Positions 14,957-27,778 are shown, counted from the first letter of the stretch. The stretch: 64,000 nucleotides of DNA from a virus (IMGVR_UViG_3300048793_000046); one strand, 5' to 3'. Translations and numbers: made by a program. Notes: generated by a model from the sequence alone, not told the origin.

Positions 14957-14979
14957 TTCCGTCAACCGCTGAGCACATC

Positions 14980-15819
14980 ATGGCCCTCAACACCTACAAG
15001 CCATTCGTTGATCGCATGATCGGCAAGTACGAGGGCGGCTACGGCTGGGATAAAGCGGACACGGGCGGCCCGACGAAATACGGCATCACCTGTTTCGATC
15101 TCGCCGAGCACATGGGCCAGAAGATGGACAGCATGGCGCGCTGGGCTCCTATCGTCCGCGCGATGACACTCGAAACCGCCGAGCAAATTTATAAGACCAA
15201 ATACGCGGGTGCAATTCGCTATGACGATCTCCCCGCCGGTCCCGATGTCGAGATGATGGACTACGGCGTCAACTCCGGTATTACGCGGCCCATCCGCGTT
15301 GTGCGTGCCATCCTCGGCGTCCCCGGCAGTGCGAAGATGGATCAAGCGCTGCTCGATGCCATCAAGAAGGCGGACCCGACCAAGCTCGTCGCCGACATCA
15401 GCGCCGAGCGACTGCACTTCATGCATGCTATCCGCAACGGTTCAGCATGGAATAGTTTCGGCGGCGGCTGGGGCGCGCGTGTGGCCGATCTTAAAGCCTA
15501 CGCCAACCATCTCATCGCTGCTCCGGGCACCGTTGCCGAGCCGCAGGCTCCCGATCTCACGAAGGTCTCGATGCCCAAAGCGCAACACGGTTCTCCGAAC
15601 ACTGTCAAGAACGTCATCAAGACGACAACCGCGACCGCGACCGCTTCCGGCACCGGCAGTCACTTTTCCGGCCTGCCGCTGGAGTTGACTGCGGTCATCG
15701 TCGGGTTCGTTATTGTCGGCGGCATCGCCTACGTTCTGTACGCCAAGCAGAAGGCTGCGAACGACAACGCGACCGTCATCCTTCCGCCGGTCGTGACGCC
15801 CATCCTCAAAGCTGCATAA
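14980..15819 (+). CDS. endolysin, glycoside hydrolase family 108 (lysozyme-like) with C-terminal transmembrane anchor
   Basis: MALNTYKPFVDRMIGKYEGGYGWDKADTGGPTKYGIT is the GH108 signature N-terminus; C-terminal hydrophobic stretch AVIVGFVIVGGIAYVLY; start chosen at ATG 14980 rather than the upstream frame extension. Confidence 0.7.
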   Translation: MALNTYKPFVDRMIGKYEGGYGWDKADTGGPTKYGITCFDLAEHMGQKMDSMARWAPIVRAMTLETAEQIYKTKYAGAIRYDDLPAGPDVEMMDYGVNSGITRPIRVVRAILGVPGSAKMDQALLDAIKKADPTKLVADISAERLHFMHAIRNGSAWNSFGGGWGARVADLKAYANHLIAAPGTVAEPQAPDLTKVSMPKAQHGSPNTVKNVIKTTTATATASGTGSHFSGLPLELTAVIVGFVIVGGIAYVLYAKQKAANDNATVILPPVVTPILKAA

Positions 15820-15828
15820 GGTTTCCTC

Positions 15829-16329
15829 ATGTCCAATCTCGATCACCTCGCCGATCTCCTGCTCCCCGCGCTCATCGGCTTCACGCTGGCGGTGGCGTAC
15901 TTCTTTGGCGTGCGTCCACTGCTAAAGCAGACGCCCGGCTTCAAGCAATTGTATGCGAGCGAAGACACGATCCTCAACGCGCTCGCGGTGAAGCTCAGCG
16001 GCGTGAAGCAAAAGATCACGACCATCTTCCTGTCGGCGGCGGGCTTCATCGTGGTCGCTCACGATGAGATCACCCCGTTCATCACGCAAGTCGGCGTGGA
16101 CCCGGCACAGATTTTGCCGAAGGTGCCGACGTGGGTCTGGCCGGTCGCGTCCGTCGCGGTCCTGTGGCTCATCCAGCATTTCCGAAACCTCGCTGACGTG
16201 CAAGCCCGTGCGAACGCTGAGGCGCTGCTCAATGCCGGTCATCCGCTCGCCGCTCCAGCCCCGGGCCTCCCGCTCGATACGCTGCCGTCCCCGTCGCCCT
16301 TGGCGTCGCTCCCTGACAAGGAAGGCTGA
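15829..16329 (+). CDS. membrane protein of the lysis cassette (holin or spanin candidate)
   Basis: multiple hydrophobic segments; directly downstream of the endolysin. Confidence 0.45.
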   Translation: MSNLDHLADLLLPALIGFTLAVAYFFGVRPLLKQTPGFKQLYASEDTILNALAVKLSGVKQKITTIFLSAAGFIVVAHDEITPFITQVGVDPAQILPKVPTWVWPVASVAVLWLIQHFRNLADVQARANAEALLNAGHPLAAPAPGLPLDTLPSPSPLASLPDKEG

Positions 16330-16332
16330 TCC

Positions 16333-16797
16333 ATGGGTGCTATCGCTGCTATTTTCACTGGACTGTCAACTGTATCGTCTCTCGTCACCGGGATGTTCGG
16401 CACCATCAACGGCATCACCAAGGCGCTCGCAGATGAGAAGATCAACGCGCGCAACGCGACGACCGAGGAAGAGAAAATCCACTCTAATGAGCGGATCAGC
16501 ATGTTACAGGCCCGGCGCGACGTGCTGATCGGGGAAGCCGGGTCCGGTTCGCGTCTCAATCTGATCGTGCGATCTCTGTTCGCCTTGGGACCGCTGAGCG
16601 TTGTCCTCAAGCTCTACTTCTGGGACAAGGTGATCGGCTCACTCGTCGGCTGCTCTCAGGCTCCCGCCGGAACATGCGGGATGTTTACTACCGACCCGCT
16701 CGATGAGAATGGCTGGAAAGTCATGAGCGTCGTGCTGGGCTTCTACTTTGTTTCCGAAATCACGCTCGGCGTCACTCGAATGGTGAAGTCGAAATAA
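16333..16797 (+). CDS. membrane protein of the lysis cassette
   Basis: N-terminal transmembrane segment MGAIAAIFTGLSTVSSLV and additional hydrophobic segments. Confidence 0.45.
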   Translation: MGAIAAIFTGLSTVSSLVTGMFGTINGITKALADEKINARNATTEEEKIHSNERISMLQARRDVLIGEAGSGSRLNLIVRSLFALGPLSVVLKLYFWDKVIGSLVGCSQAPAGTCGMFTTDPLDENGWKVMSVVLGFYFVSEITLGVTRMVKSK

Positions 16798-16813
16798 GCG
16801 GGGGATTTTTCCT

Positions 16814-17515
16814 ATGGCTGGTACATCACAACTTGATCCAGAGAAAGTATCTCTGGCCAACCCGGCTGATCCGAGCCCGAACGTCTTGGATATTGTGCGG
16901 GCTGAAAGCAAATATCAAGACGGCATGCGCGAGGCTATGGGGAAGCTAAACGAGTTCTCACTCGCTGCTCAGACCCAGTTTTCTACTTTTGCCCGCGACA
17001 GTGAAAGCCGGATGCAAACGTGGATGCGTGATGCCGAGACCAAGCGGGTCGATCAGTTGACCGCGCAAAGTCAGAATTATGAAGCGCGTATCGCGAACAT
17101 GCTGGCAGACGCCGTCAAGGACAAGTCGGACCTTGTGGCAATCCAACTGTTGCAGATACAGTCGTCTTTCGGCGAGCGCGTGTCGAAGCTGGAAGAGTTT
17201 CGACTGCTCTCGACCGGGCGAGCGCAGGTTGCTGATCCTCAGATCGCAGCATCGTTCGACATGATCAACAAAAATCTCTCTACAACGCAGGACCAGTTCG
17301 CCAAAAGCTTGACCGATATTTCATCCAAGATGGAAGTGATGGCTAAAGCAATTATAGCGCTTCAAGAGACCTCCACCAAAGGCGGCGGGCGCGAGATCGG
17401 GCGGCACGAAGTGATCGCATGGGGCATCGCGGGTGCTGGTTTTATAGCGTCCATAATTTCCGTAGTCGCTCTCTTCTTTCATCTTTCGCCAATTGCCGCT
17501 CACATCGGCGGATAA
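16814..17515 (+). CDS. coiled-coil protein with C-terminal transmembrane segment (233 aa)
   Basis: heptad-rich middle; C-terminal WGIAGAGFIASIISVVALFF. Confidence 0.4.
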   Translation: MAGTSQLDPEKVSLANPADPSPNVLDIVRAESKYQDGMREAMGKLNEFSLAAQTQFSTFARDSESRMQTWMRDAETKRVDQLTAQSQNYEARIANMLADAVKDKSDLVAIQLLQIQSSFGERVSKLEEFRLLSTGRAQVADPQIAASFDMINKNLSTTQDQFAKSLTDISSKMEVMAKAIIALQETSTKGGGREIGRHEVIAWGIAGAGFIASIISVVALFFHLSPIAAHIGG

Positions 17516-17521
17516 AAGCCG

Positions 17522-17779
17522 ATGTGGCTCGGAAAGACCAGTCTGGTCACAGCCCACATCATCTATCGGATGCCGGATCATCAGTCATTGTTGCAAGACT
17601 TCATCTGGCAGGACTATGATACGCTCCCGGACTTCCCGACGCTTCGAAAATTCCTGCTCTTCTGGCGAGACAATATCGACGGTCCGCTGTACGACGTTCG
17701 GGTCGGTCAAATCCTGACCCGCGCACAGATCATTATCGATCTTCATGATTTTGATTTTAAGGGCAGACCAACATGCTAG
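17522..17779 (+). CDS. hypothetical protein (85 aa)
   Basis: ORF only. Confidence 0.3.
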   Translation: MWLGKTSLVTAHIIYRMPDHQSLLQDFIWQDYDTLPDFPTLRKFLLFWRDNIDGPLYDVRVGQILTRAQIIIDLHDFDFKGRPTC

Positions 17780-17832
17780 TAGTCAGGCTGACGAGCTTGT
17801 GCTAGTCTGGACGAAATGAGAAAGGCCGCGCG

Positions 17833-18264
17833 ATGACATTGCTGGATCACGAAGTCAATCGTCTCGCGGAACGCTTAGCCGAACGGCTCGTCGGTACAAT
17901 TCGGGCTACCATCCGAGAGGAAATGAACATGACCGACCAAGCCATCCTTGACCTGACTGCCGCCACCGACGCCGCGCTCGGCGTACTGGGCGATGTAGTC
18001 GCCACGCTCCAGTCTGATGCCGCGACGCTCGCGTCTTCACTTGCGTCCGCCGCCGCCGCTTCCGGCGCCGCGCTCGACCCGGCCATTGAGGCTCAGGTGA
18101 AGCGCCTCACCGATGGAACCGTCGCGGCCAAGGCTGCTGCCGACGCGCTCAAGGCCCCGGTCGCCGCCGTCGCCGCTGCCGCCGCTGCCCCGGCTCCTGC
18201 CCCGGCTCCAGACGCGGCCCCGGCTGCGGCTCCTGCTCCCGGCCAGCCCGGCGCGACCGCCTAA
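17833..18264 (+). CDS. Ala/Pro-rich hypothetical protein (143 aa)
   Basis: ORF followed by a strong hairpin terminator. Confidence 0.4.
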   Translation: MTLLDHEVNRLAERLAERLVGTIRATIREEMNMTDQAILDLTAATDAALGVLGDVVATLQSDAATLASSLASAAAASGAALDPAIEAQVKRLTDGTVAAKAAADALKAPVAAVAAAAAAPAPAPAPDAAPAAAPAPGQPGATA

Positions 18265-18302: not shown

Positions 18303-18335
18303 AATGGCCCCGGAGAGCGATCTCCGGGGCCTTTC
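18303..18335. terminator. bidirectional Rho-independent terminator
   Basis: GGCCCCGGAGAGCGATCTCCGGGGCC hairpin flanked by T-runs on both strands, between convergent genes. Confidence 0.6.
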
Positions 18336-19420: not shown

Positions 19421-19669
19421 TCATTTTATCACGCCCACTACAGGCTTGAACTCGAAGCCTTCGTGCCACATCCAAAGGACCAGATGACGCGCGACATTCG
19501 CCTCAGCACCGCGCTCAGTCATGTATCGGACTAGCTTCTCACAAGCCGGGCTCGTGATAAGCCGCTCGGCGATTTCTTTAGGGACTGGATTGACGACGCG
19601 AATGGGGGCCATTTCACATCTCCACTGTCTTGAGAAGCTTGAGCATGAGATACCACTCATTGCCGACAT
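19421..19669 (-). CDS. hypothetical protein (82 aa)
   Basis: ORF only. Confidence 0.3.
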   Translation of the reverse strand: MSAMSGISCSSFSRQWRCEMAPIRVVNPVPKEIAERLITSPACEKLVRYMTERGAEANVARHLVLWMWHEGFEFKPVVGVIK

Positions 19670-20078
19670 GATGCAGCTTGAAGAAACCGAATTTCGAAAA
19701 GTAGTCCGGCTTCTGTGTCATGAGCAGGATCATCTGCCCGTCGCGTTTTCCGATCTCGTCAATGCGCCACTCGACAAGCGCCTTGCCCGCGCCGCTACCC
19801 TGATAAGTCGGGTGCACAGCAATCCAGATCAGATTGAACGCGCCCTTCATCAGCATCGAAGGTCCGAACGCGGCGAAGCCGATTGGCGTCGGAGTGTAAT
19901 CTCGCGAGAGCGGATCACCAAGGTCCATAATCCCGAACGTCGGCGCGAAGTGCCCGCCTCGGAAATACTCGACCATCTGGAGATGACAGCGGTCGGCGGC
20001 TTCGATGCCCCAGTTCTCCAAGACAAGCCCGGAGCAGAACTCGATCTCTCTGTACTTCGGTTCGCGAATGAACATCAC
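19614..20078 (-). CDS. GNAT family N-acetyltransferase
   Basis: AVHPTYQGSGAGKALVEWRI is the acetyl-CoA binding motif A. Confidence 0.65.
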   Translation of the reverse strand: MMFIREPKYREIEFCSGLVLENWGIEAADRCHLQMVEYFRGGHFAPTFGIMDLGDPLSRDYTPTPIGFAAFGPSMLMKGAFNLIWIAVHPTYQGSGAGKALVEWRIDEIGKRDGQMILLMTQKPDYFSKFGFFKLHHVGNEWYLMLKLLKTVEM

Positions 20079-20611
20079 TTGTCCCTGTGACGATAGCGAG
20101 GAATACCCGCCGCCTCTTTGATCGCATCGGCGAACTTGTCGTTCGGACCGCGTGGGTCCTTCGGCTGTTGAAGCTGTTCGTGTCGCGTCGGTTCGAAATT
20201 GTTTCTGATCTCGTCGTCAATCCGCTCGGCAAGCAACAGCACCGAAAGCTTCGGGACGATCATGACTGTATTGGCGCTCTCAGTCATCATGAGATTGATT
20301 TTGTCCTCGCCTTCGAACAAACGGAAGTCTGTGCGATAGACGATGATGGCTTTGTCTGTGCCATAGCCGTAGCCCAGTTCCCAGCACGTGCCGCTGTCCG
20401 GGTCCGGCCCGTCGAGATTGGCAAGAACCAACTGAGCCCAGTCGATGCCTGTCTTGTCAGATTTGAAAATCAGATCAGGCCGGTCGGCGTGATGCTGGCG
20501 CTCTTGCGGAAGAAAAACTTCGTGACCATGAAGTCGAAGCGCCTCTGCGAGAGCGAGATTGAAATCGCACTCGGCTGTTGAGAACAGCGGGCCTGCCATA
20601 TAGATACGCAT
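20075..20611 (-). CDS. nucleoside 2-deoxyribosyltransferase-like protein
   Basis: MRIYMAGPLFSTAECDFNLALAEALRLHGHEVFLPQ matches the NDT/Rcl family N-terminus. Confidence 0.6.
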   Translation of the reverse strand: MRIYMAGPLFSTAECDFNLALAEALRLHGHEVFLPQERQHHADRPDLIFKSDKTGIDWAQLVLANLDGPDPDSGTCWELGYGYGTDKAIIVYRTDFRLFEGEDKINLMMTESANTVMIVPKLSVLLLAERIDDEIRNNFEPTRHEQLQQPKDPRGPNDKFADAIKEAAGIPRYRHRDK

Positions 20612-20721
20612 GGGGACACTCCGGGAAAGTATGCCCGGCTCCGCTGACCGAGGTGCACCGTCAGCGGAGCCGTTTAGGGTCTATGATCCGTTAATTACGC
20701 GGACCCTCCCCCAAGCATTCG

Positions 20722-21201
20722 TTAAACTGGACCGGCACGCACTGAGCCGTCTTGAGTGGTAAGGGCATCGATCTCAGACCTGATCTCGTGAATAGTGTAC
20801 GGGTCTTCGCCGGGACCATGCATCGGAGCGAATGGGCGACGCTCTTCGGGACCAAAGCGCAGGCTCTCGCCGATCTCGTGGTTCATCACGCGAAGACACT
20901 GCTCAAGCATCCACCGTCGCCACGAGTTGCCATTGTAGGTCACGCCAGCGGGCACCGGCTGCATGTGATTGACGGTCCGCTGTCGTCGGGGATCGTAGTT
21001 GTCAACGCCCGTGATCTGGATGACAAGTCGCTTGACGCCGTCTTCATCGATCAGGCGAAACGACCAGCCCGGCTTACATCGGGTCTCCGCGACAATGGCC
21101 GCGAGAAGCTCGTAGGTGTCAGCCATGAAGCACCCAGAACAGCGTCGAGGCCACGATAGCGACGAAGACCAGACCGAAGCAGCCCGCGCCGAAGTCGTCA
21201 A
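20722..21201 (-). CDS. hypothetical protein (159 aa)
   Basis: ORF only. Confidence 0.4.
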   Translation of the reverse strand: MTTSARAASVWSSSLSWPRRCSGCFMADTYELLAAIVAETRCKPGWSFRLIDEDGVKRLVIQITGVDNYDPRRQRTVNHMQPVPAGVTYNGNSWRRWMLEQCLRVMNHEIGESLRFGPEERRPFAPMHGPGEDPYTIHEIRSEIDALTTQDGSVRAGPV

Positions 21202-21358
21202 TGCGAAGAAATTTCCTCATTGCTTCATCCTCCAAAAGCGACCCGCCGTAGTGTGACCGTGGCCTCCGTGCTTGAAAACGTCGTCACGTTAGGGCGACGG
21301 ACGCGGCAGGGTCACATACGACGGGACCCGCACTTGTTAGCGCGGGTCCCGGATCATG

Positions 21359-22489
21359 TCAAGCGGTCTTCGGGGTGTTCGTATCCCACGAGAGCCATGC
21401 CGTCGAGCCGGGCTTCCGCCGCTCGGCGCTGTCAAGATAGATCGGCCACTGAGCCGTGATCCCGCGTTTCGGATGGATGAATGCCAAGGCTTGCGTCGGA
21501 CGCGTCGGCGCGCAGCGAAGCATGAGCCGACCGTACTCGTTGTACCCAATCAGTGAACCGTTGGCGAGCACCGGGACTGCGTCGCCCCGGGGGATGTAGA
21601 CATGGTAGTGACCGATCAGAAGCGTGTCGAAGTCACGACCGCATTGAGCTTCGGAACGACCGACTTTGATAGCACCTCTAGCGATTGGGCCGAGCGCACC
21701 AATGATGCCGTCGCCGCCCTTCACGCCGAGGGTGTCGCCGTGCGTGAGCATGAAGCGATGACCGTAGATCGCGAAGTGAGCATCGACTTCGTTCGGCACA
21801 TGGATCGTGACGCGCGGGTCTTTCACGAACCACTTCTCCAGATGTTGATAAATCACCCACTCCCAACTATCGAATACGCGGTTCTTCGCGCGTGGCTTGA
21901 GCGTGGTGCGCCCGTGATTGCCCGGTACGCACGGAACGAAGACTTTGCCGAACTTGTCCGCGAGCATCGTAATGAAGCCGATGAGTTGCTCTTCGACTTC
22001 GACGACGGACAGCGTCACCGGGCCGTCGTTGGTTTCGCGAAGGTCCTCGTGAATGCCGCCAGTGATCATGTCGCCGCCGACTGCGAACACAACACCCGGA
22101 TAGGTTGGATTTGTCATGTGATTAAAACAGAGATCGATCACGGCATCGCCCATGATCTTCACCCGCTCTTTAGCGATCTTCCGGTTGAAAGCGTTCATGC
22201 CACCAACCTGATCGGGGTCCACGGTCTCGCCCCAGTGCCAATCCGATGCGAAGATCAGAGGCACGCCGGTTGTCTTATGCGTGCCTAGAGTAGGCGTCAG
22301 CCACGTCGGCGGTTCGCGCGTGTAGGCTTCGAGCCCGAAGATTTCCCGCCGGAGGCTCTCGGCGGTGTCGTTGACTTGCGTGCGACTGCGGAGTTCGCGC
22401 TGGAGCGCGTTGATTTGAGTTTGCTTGGCGCGGATGATGTCGTTGGCGTCGAGCAGACGCTCGGCATCTGTTTTCTGTTTTGTAGACAT
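21359..22489 (-). CDS. calcineurin-like metallophosphoesterase with about 85-aa N-terminal coiled extension
   Basis: IFASDWHWGE, GDMITGGIHEDL and PGNHGR metallophosphatase motifs. Confidence 0.65.
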   Translation of the reverse strand: MSTKQKTDAERLLDANDIIRAKQTQINALQRELRSRTQVNDTAESLRREIFGLEAYTREPPTWLTPTLGTHKTTGVPLIFASDWHWGETVDPDQVGGMNAFNRKIAKERVKIMGDAVIDLCFNHMTNPTYPGVVFAVGGDMITGGIHEDLRETNDGPVTLSVVEVEEQLIGFITMLADKFGKVFVPCVPGNHGRTTLKPRAKNRVFDSWEWVIYQHLEKWFVKDPRVTIHVPNEVDAHFAIYGHRFMLTHGDTLGVKGGDGIIGALGPIARGAIKVGRSEAQCGRDFDTLLIGHYHVYIPRGDAVPVLANGSLIGYNEYGRLMLRCAPTRPTQALAFIHPKRGITAQWPIYLDSAERRKPGSTAWLSWDTNTPKTA

Positions 22490-22561
22490 TGGCGGTAACT
22501 CCTGTCAGTCGCGAGACCCTTTGGTGATTGACGATAGAGACGCTTGTTGTTGAGGTACGTC

Positions 22562-22641
22562 GGAGAGTGACGATAATTCAAACGTCGCTCTCTCCCCTTC
22601 GGAGAGTGATGATAATTCAAACGTCGCTCTCTCCCCTTCGG
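22562..22641. repeat. tandem direct repeat (2 x 40 bp), each unit an imperfect palindrome GGAGAGTGACG-ATAATTCAAA-CGTCGCTCTCTCC
   Basis: exact duplication visible; located upstream of the metallophosphoesterase start. Confidence 0.7.
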
Positions 22642-22699
22642 TGAGTGGTTGTAGCGTATGTTGCGTGCGCGCTCTTTATTCTTATCCTTGTAGGCCATC

Positions 22700-23116
22700 C
22701 TAGCACACGCGGATGGGGATAGCGAACCCCATGTTTTTAAGCTGTAGCTCAAGCTGACGAAGGCGTGCGACCGGGATGTGCTGCTCGGGAAATTTCTTTC
22801 TGACTTCGCTTGAGACGGCATTGTGCACGCGGCGACCGTTCCACCGCAGGAGCAGCGCCTTGGCATAATCCTCCGCCACTGTTCGGCGCGAGCGACGGCG
22901 CACAGGGAGCCGTTCACTGCGGTTGAGAATGTAGGCCATGTCCTGTAGCCATCGCCGCGAGGTTCGCGCTTCCGGGAATTGCTCTTTGATCCTGTCGAGA
23001 ATGAAACTGTAGTCGTGGCCAATGTTGCGACCGTAGATATCGACGAAGTTGACCTTCACAAAATACTCGTGAGCAAACTTCTTGATGGTAAGCTTCTTCG
23101 GTGCTCTTGAAGGCAT
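22700..23116 (-). CDS. hypothetical protein (about 138 aa)
   Basis: start trimmed to MPSRAPKK so it does not overlap the upstream VRR-NUC gene. Confidence 0.35.
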   Translation of the reverse strand: MPSRAPKKLTIKKFAHEYFVKVNFVDIYGRNIGHDYSFILDRIKEQFPEARTSRRWLQDMAYILNRSERLPVRRRSRRTVAEDYAKALLLRWNGRRVHNAVSSEVRKKFPEQHIPVARLRQLELQLKNMGFAIPIRVC

Positions 23117-23117
23117 C

Positions 23118-23555
23118 TTACCAGCCTTCGCAGGCCCGCAAGAGCACTTCGGCGACACTGGCATGTGCATCGCACGATGCCATTGCAGCGAGGTCGGCTT
23201 CGGTCGCGATGATCTTGTCGTACCAAAATCCGGGGATGAGATAGAGCTTTGCTGCATGCGCCTCGCCAACCTGTATCAGTACCCAGTGAATGCGGCTGCC
23301 CGCTGCCGTCCGCTCGTTGTGCCAGATCGATTGGCTCTCTCGCGTCTTCGACCGGATCACCGTGCCCGGTCGTTTCGGTCGAAGGTTCGATTTCAATTCG
23401 ATCCAGCACTGATCTCCGTTGATCACTCCCTCAACATCGGGATTGCCTTCGCCTGCGGAATTTTCCAGCCTACAGAAGTGGGCCACATGGCCGCGCTTCC
23501 GCAATCTATCGACGCCGTTTCGGCATCGTGTCCAGAGTGAACTCTCGCGTGCCAT
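23118..23555 (-). CDS. VRR-NUC-like nuclease
   Basis: GNPDVEGVINGDQCWIELKS resembles the VRR-NUC G.PDl...g...fiEvK core. Confidence 0.45.
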   Translation of the reverse strand: MARESSLWTRCRNGVDRLRKRGHVAHFCRLENSAGEGNPDVEGVINGDQCWIELKSNLRPKRPGTVIRSKTRESQSIWHNERTAAGSRIHWVLIQVGEAHAAKLYLIPGFWYDKIIATEADLAAMASCDAHASVAEVLLRACEGW

Positions 23556-23562
23556 CAGAACA

Positions 23563-24003
23563 TCATGCGCTTCCGACGCTTGACGCGCGTATGTTTGCTT
23601 CGATGAGCACGTTGTCCAAATCTTTTTTGGATGCGAGCCGTGCGGCGGCGATCTCGCGGTTCTTGGCGATCACCTCTTCATCCCAGAGCGGCAGTCCGGC
23701 GGCCTCGCGCGCTTTGAGCGATGTCTCCAGATGTGCAAAAGCGCGCCACGCGAGTTTTCCCTCGTGAAGCGCGCCATCGTCAGGGTCGAACGTTCCGGTC
23801 TCGATCACGTGACGCACGATGCAGTCAGGATGATCCATCGACTTGCCTTCTGCCCAGTGAAGCGCCTCACCGGGGTTATGTTTTTCGTTGCCGAGTACGG
23901 AAATGCGCGCAACATACGCGGCAGCGTGCGGAAAGTATTTCAAGAAGCCGGTATAGATCGGGGCCTCTTTTCGAAGCTTGCTATCGGTCGGAAGCAAGGA
24001 CAT
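23563..24003 (-). CDS. dATP/dGTP pyrophosphohydrolase-domain-like protein (phage nucleotide pyrophosphatase family)
   Basis: KEAPIYTGFLKYFPHAAAYVARISVLGNEKHNPGEALHW..HPDCIVRH pattern as in phage DUF5664-type proteins. Confidence 0.4.
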   Translation of the reverse strand: MSLLPTDSKLRKEAPIYTGFLKYFPHAAAYVARISVLGNEKHNPGEALHWAEGKSMDHPDCIVRHVIETGTFDPDDGALHEGKLAWRAFAHLETSLKAREAAGLPLWDEEVIAKNREIAAARLASKKDLDNVLIEANIRASSVGSA

Positions 24004-24121: not shown

Positions 24122-24274
24122 AGGGACGCGGGTGCCTCCAATGTCGGCAGTGAGCGAAACGCATAATTGACCCTAGCTCAAAGATTAGTCGCGGAGCCCG
24201 GGGTCATACAAACGCTGCGGCTCCGCGCGACATTTGAGTAAGATACGCACATCCGGCGATCTCTGTCAAGATGG

Positions 24275-24347
24275 CATGAGTGGAAGGAGTTGAACCCTCG
24301 CTGGCACGGTTTTGGAGACCGGCGTGCTACCGTAACACTTCACTCAT
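24275..24347 (-). tRNA. tRNA-Trp (anticodon CCA), CCA not encoded
   Basis: 7-bp acceptor ATGAGTG/CACTCAT, T-arm GAGGG-TTCAACT-CCTTC, anticodon loop CTCCAAA. Confidence 0.55.
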
Positions 24348-24350
24348 AAA

Positions 24351-24427
24351 TGGTACTGCCTTAGCGATTTGAACGCCATCCCATCGGTTCACAGCCGACG
24401 TGCTCATTGCCATCGAGCATAGGCAGC
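24351..24427 (-). tRNA. tRNA-His (anticodon GTG), no G-1, A73, G1:U72; CCA encoded
   Basis: acceptor GCTGCCT/AGGCAGT, canonical T-arm TTCAAAT, anticodon loop CTGTGAA. Confidence 0.55.
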
Positions 24428-24428
24428 A

Positions 24429-24499
24429 TGGTCGCGCACCACGGTTACGATCCGGGCTGACAGCCGTATGAAAGCTATTTCCTCACCAGAGGGAGCGCG
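24429..24499 (-). tRNA. tRNA-like element, anticodon unresolved
   Basis: tgg followed by 6/7 acceptor complementarity and a cacgg-ttacgat-ccggg arm; fold not resolved by hand. Confidence 0.25.
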
Positions 24500-24504
24500 T
24501 TTAT

Positions 24505-24575
24505 TGGCAGCCGCTTTCGGTGTCGAACCGAACTCTTCAAGCTTCAAAGGCTCGTCGGGTCCCGGACCAGCGGCA
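24505..24575 (-). tRNA. tRNA-Gln (anticodon TTG), short D-region
   Basis: T-arm ttcgg-tgtcgaa-ccgaa, anticodon hairpin reading codon CAA, 1:72 unpaired. Confidence 0.4.
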
Positions 24576-24583
24576 AAAATAAT

Positions 24584-24658
24584 TGGCCCTGCTTCCGGGT
24601 GCTGCCCCCGGTTTTCCCGCTTGAAAGGCGGGGCTCTTAGCTGATGGAGGAAAGCAGG
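24584..24658 (-). tRNA. tRNA-Glu (anticodon TTC) with non-canonical T-loop GGCAGCA
   Basis: perfect acceptor cctgctt/aagcagg, perfect anticodon stem cccgc/gcggg, loop reads codon GAA; CCA encoded. Confidence 0.45.
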
Positions 24659-24659
24659 T

Positions 24660-24734
24660 TGGAGCGAGCACGGGGACTTGAACCCCGACCGCAACGCTTG
24701 GAAGGCGCGCGTGCTGCATTGACACTATGCTCGC
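24660..24734 (-). tRNA. tRNA-Gly (anticodon TCC), tentative
   Basis: perfect acceptor gcgagca/tgctcgc, canonical T-arm cgggg-acttgaa-ccccg, loop reads GGA. Confidence 0.45.
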
Positions 24735-24738
24735 AGAT

Positions 24739-24827
24739 TGGCGGAAAGACGGGGACTTGAACCCCGAAGCGGCTTACACCGCCGACAGTTTAGCAAACTG
24801 TTCGTTTGACCATTCACGCATCTTTCC
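24739..24827 (-). tRNA. tRNA-Ser (anticodon GCT), type II with long variable arm
   Basis: perfect acceptor, canonical T-arm, anticodon hairpin acagt-ttagcaa-actgt, variable-arm hairpin gcgg/ccgc; 86 nt. Confidence 0.6.
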
Positions 24828-24831
24828 AAGT

Positions 24832-24909
24832 TGGTCTTGCCGCGAGGACTTGAACCCCGACAACAGTCGTTTAGGAAACGACGGCTCTTTCCAGTTGAGC
24901 TACGGCAAG
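24832..24909 (-). tRNA. tRNA-Arg (anticodon CCT)
   Basis: perfect acceptor cttgccg/cggcaag, anticodon hairpin gtcgt-ttaggaa-acgac, D-stem gctc/gagc. Confidence 0.6.
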
Positions 24910-24914
24910 GAGAT

Positions 24915-24996
24915 TGGTGATCCGGGCAGGATTTGAACCCGCGTTTGCAGCGCCGCTACGGATAATCGCTTAGAAGACGAAACCGGCTACCGGACC
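24915..24996 (-). tRNA. tRNA-like element (79 nt), anticodon unresolved (possibly TCT)
   Basis: CCA, acceptor ggtccgg/ccggatc with G:U, T-arm gcagg-atttgaa-cccgc; internal fold unclear. Confidence 0.3.
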
Positions 24997-25000
24997 CTAA

Positions 25001-25075
25001 TGGAGACGTGCGGGCGAGTTGAACGCCCCTAGCATCGCTTTGCAGGCGAGCACATAGCCGCTCTGACAGCACGTC
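25001..25075 (-). tRNA. tRNA-Cys (anticodon GCA)
   Basis: perfect acceptor and T-arm; loop reads codon TGC; D-arm AGAGCGGCTATGT resembles the unusual E. coli tRNA-Cys D-arm. Confidence 0.6.
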
Positions 25076-25079
25076 GTAT

Positions 25080-25153
25080 TGGCAGCCCCACTCAGTGTTG
25101 ATCTGAGGTCTCGCGGTTCAGAGCCGCGCACTCTCCCGTTGAGCTATGGGGCA
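25080..25153 (-). tRNA. tRNA-Gln (anticodon CTG)
   Basis: perfect T-stem ctcag/ctgag, perfect anticodon stem cgcgg/ccgcg, loop reads CAG; 1:72 unpaired as in the other Gln. Confidence 0.5.
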
Positions 25154-25155
25154 AT

Positions 25156-25232
25156 TGGTCTGCGTAGCAGGCTTCGATCCTGCGGCCTCTCGCTTCCGGG
25201 GCGAGCACTCTTCCAGACTGAGCTATACGCAG
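25156..25232 (-). tRNA. tRNA-Pro (anticodon CGG), apparent C33
   Basis: perfect acceptor ctgcgta/tacgcag, perfect T-arm, anticodon stem ctcgc/gcgag with loop CCCGGAA. Confidence 0.45.
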
Positions 25233-25233
25233 A

Positions 25234-25315
25234 TGGTACTCGCGGCGTGGGTCGAACACGCATTTGCAACTCCATTACGGATACGACGTTCGTAGCGTCG
25301 CTCGGTTACGCGAGT
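25234..25315 (-). tRNA. tRNA-like element with perfect Arg(ACG) anticodon hairpin but aberrant D-arm/variable-region lengths
   Basis: 7/7 acceptor actcgcg/cgcgagt, canonical T-arm gcgtg-ggtcgaa-cacgc, hairpin CGACG-CTACGAA-CGTCG; spacing between elements is non-standard. Confidence 0.35.
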
Positions 25316-25329
25316 GTGAAGTGTTTGTT

Positions 25330-25403
25330 TGGGGCTGCTAGCGGGTTCTGACCCCGCGCCGCCGGTTTGAGGGACCAGCATCCTCCCATTAGACGATAGC
25401 AGC
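25330..25403 (-). tRNA. tRNA-Glu (anticodon CTC), tentative; apparent C33 and T-loop GTCAGAA
   Basis: perfect acceptor gctgcta/tagcagc and T-stem gcggg/cccgc; anticodon loop CCCTCAA. Confidence 0.35.
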
Positions 25404-25407
25404 GTTT

Positions 25408-25482
25408 TGGCTCCCGCAGCACGTTTCGAACGTGCCTTCTCCGATTAACAGTCGGACGCCCTCACCGAGATGGCTCTACGGG
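25408..25482 (-). tRNA. tRNA-Asn (anticodon GTT)
   Basis: canonical T-arm gcacg-tttcgaa-cgtgc, perfect anticodon hairpin tccga-ttaacag-tcgga. Confidence 0.6.
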
Positions 25483-25490
25483 AATAAAAA

Positions 25491-25565
25491 TGGTGGACCT
25501 TCACGGTTACGATCCGTGTCTCCCGCATTGCAAGTGCGGTGTGCTCCCATTATCACTAAAGGCCC
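25491..25565 (-). tRNA. tRNA-Ala (anticodon TGC) with G3:U70; T-loop ATCGTAA
   Basis: perfect anticodon hairpin ccgca-ttgcaag-tgcgg; acceptor GGGCCTT/AAGGTCC gives the G3:U70 identity pair; CCA encoded. Confidence 0.6.
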
Positions 25566-25566
25566 G

Positions 25567-25641
25567 TGGTGCCTAGTCACGGTTTCGATCCGCGCTCTCC
25601 TGCTCTTCACGCAGGCGCTTTCCCAGATTAGCTTACTAGGC
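25567..25641 (-). tRNA. tRNA-Phe (anticodon GAA), tentative
   Basis: perfect acceptor gcctagt/actaggc, perfect anticodon stem cctgc/gcagg, loop reads TTC. Confidence 0.5.
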
Positions 25642-25644
25642 AAT

Positions 25645-25718
25645 TGGTGCGGACAGGGAGAGTTGAACTCCCGCTACTTCGTTGGCAACGAAGCCGACTT
25701 CCGTAATCATTTGTCCGC
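25645..25718 (-). tRNA. tRNA-Gly (anticodon GCC)
   Basis: perfect acceptor, T-arm gggag-agttgaa-ctccc, anticodon hairpin cttcg-ttggcaa-cgaag. Confidence 0.6.
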
Positions 25719-25724
25719 ATTTTT

Positions 25725-25810
25725 TGGTGCTCCATCGAGGTAACGATCCTCGCCAGCCCGAAGGCATCTGTTTTACAGACAGCGCGGCGTCCTTAGCCAC
25801 CTACTGGAGC
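25725..25810 (-). tRNA. tRNA-Tyr (anticodon GTA), type II
   Basis: perfect T-arm cgagg-taacgat-cctcg, long variable arm gcc..ggc, loop tttacag reads TAC; 5' acceptor boundary uncertain. Confidence 0.4.
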
Positions 25811-25814
25811 GTAT

Positions 25815-25891
25815 TGGTTGCGCAGGTTGGAATTGAACCAACAATAAATCAGCTTATGAGGCTGACTAGCCTACCAAGGCTTGTCCGCGCG
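25815..25891 (-). tRNA. tRNA-Met (anticodon CAT; initiator, elongator or Ile2 not distinguishable)
   Basis: perfect T-arm gttgg-aattgaa-ccaac, perfect anticodon hairpin tcagc-ttatgag-gctga; possible 1:72 mismatch. Confidence 0.45.
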
Positions 25892-25901
25892 ATAGAAGAA
25901 T

Positions 25902-25990
25902 TGGCGGAGGGCGGGTAGATTTGAACTCCATGCCTTTCGGCACCCTCGGTTTTCAGGACCGCGACAGAACCCCGTCTGCTTCTGCCCTCC
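25902..25990 (-). tRNA. type II tRNA-like, possibly tRNA-Ser (anticodon TGA); imperfect T-stem
   Basis: 7/7 acceptor ggagggc/gccctcc, variable-arm hairpin, anticodon hairpin cggt-tttcagg-accg; 86 nt. Confidence 0.35.
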
Positions 25991-25994
25991 ATTT

Positions 25995-26070
25995 GGTGAT
26001 CTCCCGGGGAGTTGAACCCCGATCTCCGAGTTTCGGAAACTCGCGCTCTGTCCAGTTGAGCTAAGAGACC
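25995..26070 (-). tRNA. tRNA-Arg (anticodon CCG)
   Basis: canonical T-arm cgggg-agttgaa-ccccg, perfect anticodon hairpin cgagt-ttcggaa-actcg, D-stem gctc/gagc with GG in loop; CCA encoded. Confidence 0.6.
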
Positions 26071-26074
26071 TTTT

Positions 26075-26551
26075 TTATTTCATGCCTTTGCGTCTGACAT
26101 TGCCGCGCCGATCATAAGCTCCAGTGGGCCAAAAACAATCCATCGTGACGCGAGCGATCAAACCATCATCTGTGAACACCGCCGGTCCCTTGAGAGTTTT
26201 GCCGTCTACCGCCTGTTCGAATGCAAGATAGCTTCCGCCGCGATCAGGAGACGCTGGATCAACGAAAAACAAATCCAAGTCCGTAGGCTCATCCAACGGG
26301 ACCGGCACTCCAGCGGCCTTGCACGCCTCAAAGAGAGCGGTTCGGTATCGCTGTATCACCGCGAGATGCATCCGACGATGCGGCGCGTGATGGATCGATA
26401 GCCGCAACAGGGCTGGGAATTGATCGGGAAAGTATTTGACGATGATCTTCATTTCAAAGTCCTTTGGTGGGCCGCTCCGGTTACGATCCGGATCAAGGAA
26501 CAGCCGTCCGCTGCTAAAGAGCTTATAAGGCTCTCCCGTGTCCAACACCAC
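26075..26551 (-). CDS. hypothetical protein (158 aa) embedded between the two tRNA blocks; weak RusA-like resemblance (DLD..DDG)
   Basis: ORF flanked by tRNAs on the same strand. Confidence 0.35.
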   Translation of the reverse strand: MVLDTGEPYKLFSSGRLFLDPDRNRSGPPKDFEMKIIVKYFPDQFPALLRLSIHHAPHRRMHLAVIQRYRTALFEACKAAGVPVPLDEPTDLDLFFVDPASPDRGGSYLAFEQAVDGKTLKGPAVFTDDGLIARVTMDCFWPTGAYDRRGNVRRKGMK

Positions 26552-26561
26552 AGCCCATTTC

Positions 26562-26635
26562 TGGTCTCCGCACGGAGTTCCGCCTTCCGGCCTCCGCCTT
26601 CCAAGGGCGGCGCTCTTCTCACGAGCTTTGCAGAG
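26562..26635 (-). tRNA. tRNA-Pro (anticodon TGG) with GG-containing T-loop GGCGGAA and a GG-less D-loop
   Basis: perfect anticodon hairpin ccgcc-ttccaag-ggcgg, D-stem gctc/gagc, acceptor with one G:U. Confidence 0.45.
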
Positions 26636-26640
26636 CTAAC

Positions 26641-26714
26641 TGGCGCGGCTAGGGAGTATCGATCTCCCGTCATTCGGTTGACAACCGAGCGCTCTACCTT
26701 TGAACTATAGCCGC
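26641..26714 (-). tRNA. tRNA-Asp (anticodon GTC)
   Basis: perfect acceptor gcggcta/tagccgc, perfect T-arm gggag-tatcgat-ctccc, loop ttgacaa reads GAC. Confidence 0.55.
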
Positions 26715-26721
26715 AAAAATT

Positions 26722-26796
26722 TGGTGGGCTCCCACGGTAACGATCCGTGTTCTCATGGGTTAAGAGGCCAGCGCACTACCTTTGTGCTAGGAGCCC
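26722..26796 (-). tRNA. tRNA-Lys (anticodon CTT), weak anticodon stem, T-loop ATCGTTA
   Basis: perfect acceptor GGGCTCC, D-stem GCAC/GTGC, anticodon loop CTCTTAA with only 3 central base pairs. Confidence 0.4.
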
Positions 26797-26797
26797 T

Positions 26798-26872
26798 TGG
26801 TGGACCGCCCCGGTACTGCCCCGGGTTCTTACGGGTTAAAAGGCCGACGTGCTACTTTCCTACTCGCGGTCC
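26798..26872 (-). tRNA. tRNA-Lys (anticodon TTT), weak anticodon stem, T-loop GGCAGTA
   Basis: perfect acceptor ggaccgc/gcggtcc, perfect T-stem cccgg/ccggg, loop CTTTTAA. Confidence 0.4.
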
Positions 26873-26874
26873 GA

Positions 26875-27060
26875 TCAGGACTGCGACGGTTTCAGTGTAG
26901 CCTCAACGCACACCACGATCTGTCCCGTTGCAGGGATGTGATGCACGATCTGGCGCTTCATCTTGAAACGTGTATCGCCCACAGCGCAGAGCGGGCACTT
27001 TTCTGTATCTTGCATGCTCGTCTCCTGTTGTGTTGGTTGACCCTGCTGGTTTCGATCCAA
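26875..27060 (-). CDS. small Cys-containing protein (61 aa, CPLC motif)
   Basis: short ORF inside the tRNA block. Confidence 0.25.
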   Translation of the reverse strand: MDRNQQGQPTQQETSMQDTEKCPLCAVGDTRFKMKRQIVHHIPATGQIVVCVEATLKPSQS

Positions 27061-27108
27061 CTTTCCACGGTTATCGACCGCGTGCCTTAGCCACTAGACG
27101 AAGGGTCA
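27034..27108 (-). tRNA. tRNA-Ile (anticodon GAT), tentative; apparent C33
   Basis: perfect acceptor tgaccct/agggtca, T-arm gctgg-tttcgat-ccaac, anticodon loop TCGATAA. Confidence 0.4.
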
Positions 27109-27112
27109 GTGA

Positions 27113-27187
27113 TGGTGCGTCTTGCAGGGGATGATCCTGCCGCCTCTCGCATGTCGAGCGAGCGCTCTTCCGCTGAGCTAAAGACGC
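27113..27187 (-). tRNA. tRNA-Val (anticodon GAC), tentative; apparent C33
   Basis: perfect acceptor gcgtctt/aagacgc, perfect T-stem gcagg/cctgc, anticodon stem ctcgc/gcgag with loop TCGACAT. Confidence 0.4.
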
Positions 27188-27192
27188 GGAAT

Positions 27193-27274
27193 TGGTCGGA
27201 GGGGTATTTCTACACCCGGAGCGCGTACTGGTCCCCCGCCCTTTCGGGCGAGCCAACGCCATCTCTACCCTCCG
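27193..27274 (-). tRNA. tRNA-like element (79 nt), unresolved internal fold
   Basis: CCA plus perfect 7-bp acceptor cggaggg/ccctccg; G-rich interior with CCC-GAAA-GGG hairpin. Confidence 0.3.
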
Positions 27275-27305
27275 CCGGGCCTGCCTCGTTGCGCTTGCGC
27301 GCGAT

Positions 27306-27380
27306 TGGTACTCCCTCCCGGGATCGAGCCGGGTCATGTCGGTGTGTAGGACCGATGCCTTCCCATCTGGCGCAGGGAGC
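27306..27380 (-). tRNA. tRNA-Val (anticodon TAC), tentative; apparent C33
   Basis: perfect T-arm cccgg-gatcgag-ccggg, perfect anticodon stem tcggt/accga with loop CCTACAC. Confidence 0.4.
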
Positions 27381-27381
27381 G

Positions 27382-27457
27382 TGGTGTGAATGTCGGGAGT
27401 TGAACCCGAAAGGCACGGGGTTTAAGCCCTGCCGCGTTTCCGCTTCGCCACACTCAC
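27382..27457 (-). tRNA. tRNA-like element with TTA/TAA triplet in a 6-7 nt anticodon loop (class I length)
   Basis: CCA, acceptor gtgagtg/cattcac, canonical T-arm tcggg-agttgaa-cccga; stem cgggg/ccctg closes a tttaag loop. Confidence 0.3.
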
Positions 27458-27458
27458 T

Positions 27459-27534
27459 TGGTGTCGGTCGCGGGAGTTGAACCCGCAAGAGTTGGCTTTT
27501 GAGACCACCCATGTTTCCACTTCACCAGACCGAC
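27459..27534 (-). tRNA. tRNA-like element, anticodon unresolved (CAA-like loop CTCAAAA)
   Basis: perfect acceptor gtcggtc/gaccgac and canonical T-arm gcggg-agttgaa-cccgc. Confidence 0.35.
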
Positions 27535-27539
27535 AAAAT

Positions 27540-27622
27540 TGGTACCCCCGGGGAGACTTGAACTCCCAATCCTTTCGGCGCTAGTTTCTAAGACTAGTGC
27601 GTATGCATTCCGCCACGGGGGC
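27540..27622 (-). tRNA. tRNA-Leu (anticodon TAG), type II
   Basis: canonical T-arm gggag-acttgaa-ctccc, perfect anticodon hairpin ctagt-ttctaag-actag, long variable region; 80 nt. Confidence 0.55.
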
Positions 27623-27623
27623 G

Positions 27624-27697: not shown

Positions 27698-27701
27698 GAA
27701 T

Positions 27702-27776: not shown

Positions 27777-27778
27777 AA

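Follow-up and report, generated by a model that had tools for sequence, protein, structure and literature searches.

A leftwards-transcribed cluster of nuclease-like and nucleotide-handling genes following the tRNA array of a soil phage

The window analysed is a 64,000-nucleotide stretch of DNA from the virus IMGVR_UViG_3300048793_000046. The gene cluster described here lies directly after an array of 27–28 tRNA genes (24272–27852) and has the following features, listed from right to left:

24240–24269, minus strand: promoter-like site (TTGACA—18 bp—TATCTT; 10 of 12 matches, a consensus match only)
23563–24003, minus strand: stand-alone DUF5664 protein of the Xp10 p33L type, 146 aa (PF18909, phrog_27780)
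23118–23555, minus strand: putative PD-(D/E)xK nuclease, VRR-NUC-like, 145 aa (phrog_2165, invariant motif)
22700–23116, minus strand: small basic protein, ~138 aa (phrog_16873, direct reading of the sequence)
22468–22697 (end approximate), minus strand: small ORF of SPKG repeats (tblastn, direct reading of the sequence)
21359–22489, minus strand: metallophosphoesterase (MPE), 376 aa, with an N-terminal coiled helix (structural matches)
20722–21201, minus strand: phrog_1540 protein (phrog_1540 match)
20075–20611, minus strand: NDT-family enzyme, 178 aa (PF05014, PDB NDTs)
19614–20078, minus strand: GNAT acetyltransferase, 153–154 aa (PF13508, PF00583, PDB 2r7h)
18306–18331, both strands: predicted bidirectional terminator hairpin (11 bp with 9 G-C pairs; T-runs on both strands)

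The initial annotation had named five of these genes (DUF5664, nuclease, MPE, NDT and GNAT) as a minus-strand group adjoining the tRNA array, and their coordinates, strand and adjacency are all confirmed; it had missed the phrog_1540 gene, the basic protein and the SPKG-repeat ORF. The co-orientation of the cluster genes carries little weight, because the entire 18.3–47.5 kb stretch is transcribed from the minus strand. The promoter-like site is situated between tRNA-Trp (24272–24347, the last tRNA) and the DUF5664 gene and is a possible start of a transcription unit; four such consensus sites are present in the region, compared with 2.3 expected by chance. The hairpin is predicted to terminate both the minus-strand operon and the lysis operon that converges on it.

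Comparison of the window proteins by tblastn with 29 IMG/VR loci reveals about ten related viral contigs that keep the core gene order, with the NDT and phrog_1540 genes coming and going. Loci L004–L013 are organized as DUF5664, nuclease, basic protein, MPE, (phrog_1540), (NDT) and GNAT, with the SPKG-repeat ORF just before the MPE gene. The NDT is absent from four of the ten close relatives (L005, L006, L007 and L012), phrog_1540 is variably present (L004, L005, L010 and L011), and the GNAT is found in all ten, with or without the NDT. At 22 of the 29 loci, no more than 2.5 kb separates the MPE gene from a DUF5664 gene, which can belong to one of two subtypes and be placed on either side, and this linkage persists across phages whose MPEs are only 38–60% identical. 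In Xp10 and one phiKMV-like phage, a DUF5664 gene of the type seen in the window closes a block of polymerase, exonuclease and endonuclease VII genes. Such tight linkage of MPE and DUF5664, involving two subtypes and both gene orders, hints that the two may function as a pair and is poorly explained by a combination of replication and pool hygiene.

The small basic protein matches phrog_16873 (E = 5.8e-7, PHROG search) and has homologs in L004–L013 and L023; the ORF-finder call reached 23269, and the true start is likely the ATG at 23116 that overlaps the nuclease stop codon (TAAGATG). The SPKG-repeat ORF is built of 13-aa ‘RY-x-x-SPKG’ repeats, contains a 39-nt tandem repeat at 22560–22647, and runs at its 3′ end into the MPE start; tblastn matches are located just upstream of the MPE gene in L004–L015 and L023 (E = 1e-10 to 1e-17). 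The phrog_1540 protein (E = 8.6e-10) probably starts at an internal Met near 21123, and its homologs among GenBank phages are only in Mycobacterium phages. The GNAT scores above the cut-offs of both PF13508 (30.3 bits) and PF00583 (27.5 bits) and matches PDB 2r7h (E = 7e-6) with the acetyl-CoA loop ‘YQGSGAGKAL’ aligned; its start codon and the NDT stop codon overlap (TGATG).

The putative assignment of the 23118–23555 product as a VRR-NUC protein is the weakest call in the cluster. A Pfam scan returned nothing at E ≤ 0.01, and the protein matches phrog_2165, a family labelled ‘DNA helicase’, at E = 4.6e-23. It carries an invariant G-x-P-D...E-L-K motif, with E31, P39-D40 and E53-x-K55 as the invariant residues of the protein, is 52–84% identical across the related loci, and has homologs of 36–40% identity in Xp12/PaMx74-like phages. 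It resembles the VRR-NUC nucleases (PF08774, 4qbo) in being a small PD-(D/E)xK protein with a G-x-P-D...E-x-K signature in a replication module with an SNF2 helicase. However, it falls below Pfam detection, the sole PDB match of its family profile is the VRR-NUC domain 4qbo with PD...ExK aligned but an E value of only 1.2, and its gene is 10 kb from the SNF2 gene with the tRNA array between them.

The MPE shows the hallmarks of the calcineurin-like superfamily, an alpha/beta sandwich with five metal-binding motifs, and its best structural matches belong to the nuclease branch (PolD DP1, SbcD and Mre11). Judged by this ranking of fold matches, it is probably a nuclease that acts on DNA, of the DP1/Mre11/SbcD type. 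It differs from these proteins in having only ~15% sequence identity to them, no Pfam Metallophos match, and a unique N-terminal helix in place of the OB-fold. No DP2, Rad50 or SbcC partner gene was found, with no ATPase gene either at 18.3–24 kb or adjoining the MPE gene in related loci. The window PolA itself carries Exo I and Exo III motifs, and therefore a trans-acting proofreader would be unnecessary. In distant phages the MPE gene sits beside PolA or recombination genes, with PolA, a DUF2800 exonuclease, exonuclease VIII and SSB as conserved neighbours: it directly follows DUF2800-PolA in L016–L022, and in the cyanophages S-CBS1 and KBS-S-2A it comes after genes for exonuclease VIII and SSB. 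There is a precedent for a role in host-DNA degradation in mycobacteriophage A10ZJ24 Gp48, an early-expressed phage MPE that degrades host DNA (PMC12287305). However, Gp48 has no detectable homology to the window MPE (none of 94 tblastn hits is in a Mycobacterium phage), and its motif I is at residue 10 such that it does not have the N-terminal extension seen here.

These matches and neighbours do not bear out the proposal in the initial annotation that the cluster degrades nucleotide second messengers. A phosphodiesterase destroying cyclic-oligonucleotide or other nucleotide immune signals is a very unlikely identity for the MPE; several homologs are labelled ‘predicted phosphodiesterase’ by JGI, but the top structural matches are nucleases and the genes conserved around it function in replication and recombination. 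The known signal-degrading phage enzymes also have other folds, Acb1 being a 2H phosphoesterase and Apyc1 having a metallo-beta-lactamase fold, and Pfam, PHROG and structure searches of the cluster genes turned up neither of them. A literature search revealed no instance of signalling nucleotides being degraded by a phage MPE, the substrate of Gp48 being host DNA. The initial annotation had itself held that SbcD-like housekeeping homologs together with unmodified DNA would speak against it, and the SbcD-like MPE comes close to the first of these.

The DUF5664 protein matches PF18909 (dGTP_diPhyd_N; residues 23–100) with 30.7 bits against a cut-off of 27, and phrog_27780 at E = 2.5e-33. PF18909 is its sole Pfam domain, with no fused DUF550/MazG-like domain, and stands alone in all 180 detected relatives that have Pfam domains on record. 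The protein thus differs from the SH-Ab 15497-type dATP/dGTP diphosphohydrolase, in which DUF5664 is fused to a C-terminal DUF550/MazZ catalytic domain. The AlphaFold2 model (pLDDT 91.7) is all-alpha, with residues 101–146 forming one long helix, and gave zero significant fold matches in a PDB structure search. The invariant residues are G38-N39-x-K41-H42-N43-P44-G45...H49...K54-S55-x-D57...R64-H65...W86-R87, few of which are acidic. A stand-alone DUF5664 enzyme of Arthrobacter phage Wayne is a pyrophosphohydrolase that converts dATP, dUTP and dGTP to dNMP (PMC12884076), and because of this the window protein is a putative dNTP pyrophosphohydrolase that, by analogy, most likely hydrolyses selected dNTPs to dNMP and pyrophosphate. 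The window protein is only remotely related to the assayed DUF5664-1 subtype (hhalign probability 45%, E = 2e-4): the two subtypes have in common only the core G-x-x-K-[HY]...R-H...G-x-x-H, with the other invariant residues differing, and a tblastn search of the window with the Wayne DUF5664 gave no match.

The NDT matches PF05014 (71.5 bits against a cut-off of 28.8; E = 8e-20), with a further match to PF15891 (48 bits), and aligns with the PDB NDTs 7m5h (E = 4e-9) and 6evs (E = 8e-9), including the catalytic Glu in ‘CWELG’. Its family profile matches true NDTs at E = 1e-25 to 1e-8, DNPH1/Rcl at 7e-3 to 0.09, and dNMP/NMP N-glycosidases as a whole at only 4e-4 to 0.09, favouring true NDTs over dNMP N-glycosidases by more than 15 orders of magnitude. 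Across 40 homologs Y4, Q36 and D72 never vary, and D67, E78 and N106 are kept in at least 90%. E78 corresponds to the Glu of 7m5h and 6evs, Y4 and D67 are the supporting Tyr and Asp, and the Asp at −6 from the Glu is aligned with that of true NDTs. The NDT-type active site is intact, and D72 and N106 supply the Asp and Asn of a nucleoside-type (5′-OH) pocket, as mapped onto Lactobacillus NDT residue numbering. Asp and Asn binding the 5′-OH mark a nucleoside rather than a nucleotide substrate (PMC12884076). The window NDT most likely exchanges or frees bases, with free deoxynucleosides as its substrates.

The likeness to bacterial NDTs (7m5h, 7o62 and 6evs; Lactobacillus NDT/PTD) extends to the catalytic Tyr, Asp and Glu, the Gln, the 5′-OH-binding Asp and Asn, and the length and fold of the core. 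This ~132-aa core shares ~65% identity with 143-aa NDTs encoded on soil-bacterial chromosomes, on bacterial contigs of 477–857 kb, and was apparently acquired from, or is common to, soil bacteria; the phage copies differ by an additional variable C-terminal tail of 30–60 residues, often ending in Y-x-H-x-D-K. Of four phage-contig NDTs that have been assayed, the two from canonical contigs were inactive, as was a third from a dZ contig (10.1101/2025.10.22.683976).

DNA base hypermodification, which had also been suggested initially, is not supported by the gene content of the window. Among ~90 window ORFs, Pfam searches identified no PF00709 (adenylosuccinate synthetase, PurZ family) member, thymidylate-synthase-like hydroxymethylase, DpdA/Que gene or DNA glycosyltransferase; there is also no dUTPase, and Pfam and PHROG searches of the whole window revealed no base-modification enzyme. 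The most specific form of the idea is a 2-aminoadenine (dZ) or other purine-substituted genome, with the DUF5664 protein and the NDT in the roles of DUF5664-1 and DmtZ (or NDT-M2), depleting dATP and dA in favour of the modified purine. DUF5664-1 and the NDT-like DmtZ work together to supply dZTP in the PurZ0 phages (PMC12884076), and in dZ-enriched metagenomic contigs PF05014 is found alongside HD/YfbR-like domains and PolA (bioRxiv 10.1101/2025.10.22.683976), domain types that are all present in the window. As in Wayne (gp51/gp53) and Gordonia phage Ghobes, PF18909 and an NDT-superfamily protein are encoded by one phage near its DNA polymerase.

Such a genome is nevertheless extremely improbable here. 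The defining enzyme PurZ is absent from the 64-kb window, from the 6.5 kb upstream and from the regions flanking every related locus, tblastn with Wayne PurZ0 giving no match in the window or any locus; neither DutZ nor DUF550/MazZ is present in the window, and the YfbR-like model matches the HD protein at no better than E = 0.012. Neither the PolA nor the DUF5664 protein of Wayne has a close match in the window, whose DUF5664 is of the Xp10 p33L subtype. The window NDT is also unlike DmtZ, a dAMP hydrolase/deoxyribose-5-phosphate transferase in which small, uncharged, space-saving residues form a 5′-phosphate pocket where the window protein retains Asp and Asn; DmtZ is modelled on the Rcl/DNPH1 dNMP hydrolases, which the window NDT matches at ~1e-2 compared with 1e-25 for true NDTs. 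Furthermore, 3 kb separates the DUF5664 gene from that of the NDT, and sister phages can do without the NDT, which 4 of 10 of them lack.

The interpretation we favour, with a probability of about 0.6, is that the cluster is the distal end of the leftward early/DNA-metabolism operon of a soil phage and not one pathway, with a replication/repair core and variable nucleotide-pool accessory genes. The core layer would include the DUF5664 protein, the VRR-NUC-like nuclease, the basic protein, the SPKG-repeat protein and the DP1/Mre11/SbcD-like MPE, and would act in DNA replication, recombination or host-DNA processing together with dNTP-pool hygiene: the two nucleases would cut or trim DNA, and the DUF5664 protein would convert selected dNTPs to dNMP and pyrophosphate. 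The variable tail would consist of phrog_1540, the NDT and the GNAT. The NDT substrates could be deoxynucleosides made by a YfdR-like HD phosphohydrolase encoded next to PolA, and the NDT would therefore rebalance the salvage pool. All of these catalytic activities are predicted ones, as is the chain dNTP to dNMP to deoxynucleoside to base exchange that they would form. Of the roles first proposed, nucleotide-pool manipulation is thus retained, based on the family shared with the Wayne enzyme and the intact NDT active site, while hypermodification and second-messenger degradation are not.

The same enzymes could act in anti-defence, with the DUF5664 protein, the HD phosphohydrolase and the NDT draining dNTPs, dNMPs and deoxynucleosides used as immune triggers or signal precursors. 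T5 Dmp defeats the Kongming system by depleting dAMP (bioRxiv 10.1101/2024.12.20.629578), and the window HD phosphohydrolase is filed with dNMP phosphatases in PHROGs; however, it is YfdR/Atu1052-like, no link to T5 Dmp itself was found, and its gene is 12 kb from the cluster. The window encodes a Tad3 anti-Thoeris homolog, and the phage therefore carries counter-defence genes, but the phage dNMP kinase that is the Kongming trigger was not found. Variable presence of the NDT and phrog_1540 is common for accessory anti-defence genes, although the NDT has close chromosomal housekeeping homologs. On balance this role is unlikely.

That the MPE and DUF5664 proteins form a two-enzyme functional unit not characterised before is a speculative proposal with decidedly low odds. 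If true, a nuclease might be coupled to an enzyme that processes dNTPs or dNMPs; such a unit could remodel or control the deoxynucleotide pool while host DNA is being broken down, blunting host immunity that senses nucleotides, and would need neither PurZ nor any base modification.

The genome fragment is ~58% G+C across the window, and a near-identical DNA search of GenBank phages with the window gave no match. Pieces of the window are contained in the Logan assembly of run SRR35912384, and proteins identical to those of the window are present in a protein database on a 74.8-kb JGI contig; the 6.5 kb added upstream of the window contains tail genes, and no sequence was gained past position 64000. 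The main features are:

1–18264, plus: tail, sugar-nucleotide and lysis genes
10937–11980, plus: GDP-mannose 4,6-dehydratase (488 bits)
12789–13661, plus: DUF5672
13658–14614, plus: NAD-dependent epimerase/dehydratase
18306–18331: strong bidirectional terminator hairpin at the end of the minus-strand block
18349–47537, minus: single long early/DNA-metabolism block
19614–20078, minus: GNAT
20075–20611, minus: nucleoside 2'-deoxyribosyltransferase-family protein (NDT)
20722–21201, minus: phrog_1540 gene
21359–22489, minus: metallophosphoesterase (MPE)
22468–22697, minus: SPKG-repeat ORF
ATG at 23116 (probable true start): basic protein of ~138 aa
23118–23555, minus: nuclease
23563–24003, minus: DUF5664 protein
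24272–27852, minus: array of 27–28 tRNAs, followed in the block by the genes listed from 24003 down to 19614
28746–29777, minus: DUF932
33863–35383, minus: SNF2 helicase
35808–36719, minus: YfdR-like HD phosphohydrolase
36959–39241, minus: family-A DNA polymerase (PolA)
39583–40215, minus: gp2.5/Enc34-like SSB
40291–40986, minus: PAP2 phosphatase
42268–43566, minus: DUF2800 PD-(D/E)xK exonuclease
43579–43941, minus: Tad3 homolog (PF25185, 104 bits, E 4e-30)
45068–45427: stand-alone HIRAN domain protein
47648–49978, opposite strand: primase-polymerase/DUF5906 protein
53336–54052: Rv2179c-like 3'-5' exoribonuclease

The minus-strand genes at 19614–24003 constitute a real, conserved and co-transcribed-looking set, and every gene named in the initial annotation is present at its listed position. 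The NDT-like gene matches PF05014 (71.5 bits), the GNAT gene matches PF13508 (30.3 bits) and PF00583 (27.5 bits), and the protein described as dATP/dGTP pyrophosphohydrolase-like contains the DUF5664 domain alone (PF18909, 30.7 bits). Three conserved genes had been overlooked, namely the phrog_1540 gene, the basic protein gene and the SPKG-repeat ORF. Antisense plus-strand ORFs inside the block (e.g. 21602–22288) are taken as spurious, because protein-level conservation across related loci tracks the minus-strand frames. The components are new members of known families, with no indication of a new type of system, and we infer every catalytic role. A core comprising the DUF5664 protein, the nuclease, two small proteins and a DP1/Mre11-like MPE would act in replication or repair and in dNTP hygiene, and a variable tail of phrog_1540, NDT and GNAT would supply accessories for remodelling the nucleotide pool.

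These layers were read by mapping the window proteins onto 29 loci found in an IMG/VR scan with the MPE (36–90% identity). The ten closest contigs (60–127 kb) all keep the order DUF5664, nuclease, basic protein, MPE, GNAT. The NDT gene is found in six of these ten (missing from loci L005, L006, L007 and L012) and is a dispensable add-on to the block; the GNAT gene stays with or without it, and phrog_1540 is present in four. At seven loci of more distant phages (L016–L022, ~43 kb) the MPE directly follows DUF2800-PolA, and in cyanophages S-CBS1 and KBS-S-2A it follows exonuclease VIII and SSB genes. A DUF5664 gene of either the Xp10-p33L type or the type found in Arthrobacter phage Wayne lies within ~2.5 kb of the MPE, upstream or downstream, at 22 of the 29 loci. 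The type carried in the window also closes a block of polymerase, exonuclease and endonuclease VII genes in Xp10 and a phiKMV-like phage. The stable association is therefore that of MPE, DUF5664 and replication/recombination genes, and ordinary explanations leave a single feature not fully accounted for, the persistent MPE–DUF5664 pairing.

The MPE family contains ~2,700 proteins and has no Pfam model; Pfam gave no match to the window protein, which matches phrog_284 ('exonuclease', E 2.9e-45). All five metallophosphoesterase motifs are invariant among 36 homologs, and the structure model has a calcineurin-like sandwich preceded by a conserved N-terminal helix. The single sequence matched nothing significant in a PDB sequence search, and no Rad50/SbcC-like ATPase was found accompanying the gene. 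As the best fold match is DP1, a role as a trans-acting proofreader for PolA was considered; PolA itself contains Exo I (DFET) and Exo III (YCKQD) motifs, so this role is unnecessary and was dropped. Degradation of host DNA by a phage MPE is on record for a mycobacteriophage (PMC12287305); that protein is not a detectable homolog of the window's MPE. Degradation of nucleotide second messengers, an earlier suggestion for the block, is disfavoured, in that signal-degrading enzyme folds of known kinds are absent from the block proteins and both the MPE fold ranking and the gene context point to DNA.

DUF5664 relatives with Pfam domains on record have PF18909 as their sole domain. The window protein gave nothing significant in a single-sequence search of the PDB, and its all-alpha model (pLDDT 91.7) gave nothing significant with Foldseek against the PDB (best match iMazG, E 1.3). 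In Wayne, a stand-alone DUF5664 protein turns dATP, dUTP and dGTP into dNMPs, and in PurZ0 'Z-genome' phages DUF5664 works alongside DmtZ, an NDT-like enzyme that hydrolyses dAMP and passes deoxyribose-5-phosphate on to 2-aminoadenine (PMC12884076, 2026). The Wayne and window proteins have their Pfam family in common but are of different subtypes, which hhalign relates with a probability of only 45%; the core present in both is G-x-x-K-[H/Y]...R-H...G-x-x-H. Among the invariant residues of the window subtype, His, Lys, Arg and Ser are frequent and acidic residues scarce. Because the subtype differs and no solved structure was matched, we infer a putative dNTP-hydrolysing role by family membership only.

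Among the domain labels, VRR-NUC is the least secure: in the nuclease, a PD-(D/E)xK protein, the signature G-x-P-D...E-L-K is invariant, and the only structure matched by its family profile is VRR-NUC 4qbo at E 1.2, with no significant match for the single sequence in a PDB sequence search. Full-length homologs (36–40% identity) are found in Xp12, PaMx74, Xoo-sp2 and Elanor, and a dihydrofolate reductase gene directly adjoins them in Xp12/PaMx74-like phages; Xp12 is the classical 5-methylcytosine phage. Neither a dihydrofolate reductase gene nor a thymidylate-synthase-like gene was found in the window. The SPKG-repeat ORF, just upstream of the MPE gene and running into it, encodes 13-aa 'RY-x-x-SPKG-x5' repeats, contains a 39-nt tandem duplication (22560–22647; two repeats 95% identical) and is kept at loci L004–L015 and L023. 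GenBank phage homologs of phrog_1540 are confined to 173 Mycobacterium phages (30–38% identity, all hypothetical), an odd distribution given that other genes of the phage resemble those of proteobacterial or acidobacterial phages.

An NDT family profile built from 40 homologs reaches E 1e-25 to 1e-8 against genuine nucleoside 2'-deoxyribosyltransferases, but only E 4e-4 to 0.09 against the dNMP/NMP N-glycosidases BlsM, MilB and Rcl/DNPH1. Y4, Q36 and D72 are invariant, and conservation is 90% or more at D67, E78 and N106; these residues include the catalytic Tyr, Asp and Glu and the 5'-OH-binding Asp and Asn of true NDTs. In DmtZ and Rcl the 5'-OH Asp/Asn are replaced by small uncharged residues that admit phosphate (PMC12884076). 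Retention of the nucleoside-type Asp/Asn indicates that the window NDT should act on deoxynucleosides and not on dNMPs; it is not a DmtZ. Bacterial contigs of 477–857 kb, one labelled as a Bradyrhizobium MAG, singly encode NDTs of 143 aa with ~65% identity to the core of the window NDT, consistent with a host-derived auxiliary salvage gene. Phage NDTs add a variable C-terminal tail, often ending Y-x-H-x-D-K; the linker (20075–20210, minus; also L004, L008 and L010) is poorly conserved yet shares this terminus. The C-terminus of classical NDTs extends into the active site of the neighbouring subunit, and by analogy the phage tail may be functional.

Base hypermodification, also proposed in the initial annotation, is not supported. 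PurZ is the defining enzyme of Z-genomes, and tblastn with Wayne PurZ0 together with Pfam (~90 ORFs) found it absent from the window, the 6.5 kb upstream and the flanks of all related loci; Pfam scans of the ~90 ORFs revealed no thymidylate-synthase-like hydroxymethylase, DpdA, Que genes, DUF550/MazZ or dUTPase. A preprint (10.1101/2025.10.22.683976) reports co-occurrence of PF05014 with domains of the HD and PolA types in dZ-enriched contigs, and all three are present in the window, but as PurZ is missing this is not evidence for dZ. The HD protein adjoining PolA matches phrog_318 ('dNMP phosphatase', E 1e-51) and PDB 2gz4 (E 4e-8), and falls below cut-off with the YfbR-like model of Pfam (E 0.012). 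The protein could provide the NDT with deoxynucleosides; its identification as DatZ or T5 Dmp is not supported, the evidence showing YfdR/Atu1052-like similarity only. The block may have an indirect anti-defence role: T5 overcomes the Kongming system with a dNMP phosphatase that removes dAMP (10.1101/2024.12.20.629578), and this phage carries a Tad3 homolog elsewhere.

The main effect of the result is to remove a false lead: adjacent NDT, 'dATP/dGTP pyrophosphohydrolase-like' and phosphoesterase genes are no sign of hypermodified DNA in this soil phage lineage. The link of DUF5664 and NDT to 2-aminoadenine genomes dates only from 2025–2026, and because both occur in a lineage where PurZ was not found, these enzymes probably serve more widely in managing the nucleotide pool, independently of PurZ. 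The consistent linkage of the MPE family to DUF5664 and replication genes provides a defined target for biochemistry, which the MPE–DUF5664 pairing merits.

The Tad3 homolog, a homolog of a type I Thoeris inhibitor, is directly beside the DUF2800 exonuclease gene; no other anti-defence gene was recognised in the window. Rfam over 17.5–28.5 kb reported tRNAs only, including one (25333–25403, minus) missed by ARAGORN; another (27382–27457, minus) is an ARAGORN call lacking a determined anticodon, and a 158-aa ORF inside the array (26075–26551, minus) overlaps a predicted tRNA-Ile(tat). The sugar-nucleotide genes (10937–14614, plus) are located between tail-fibre-like genes and the lysin gene and may modify a host surface glycan or the virion.
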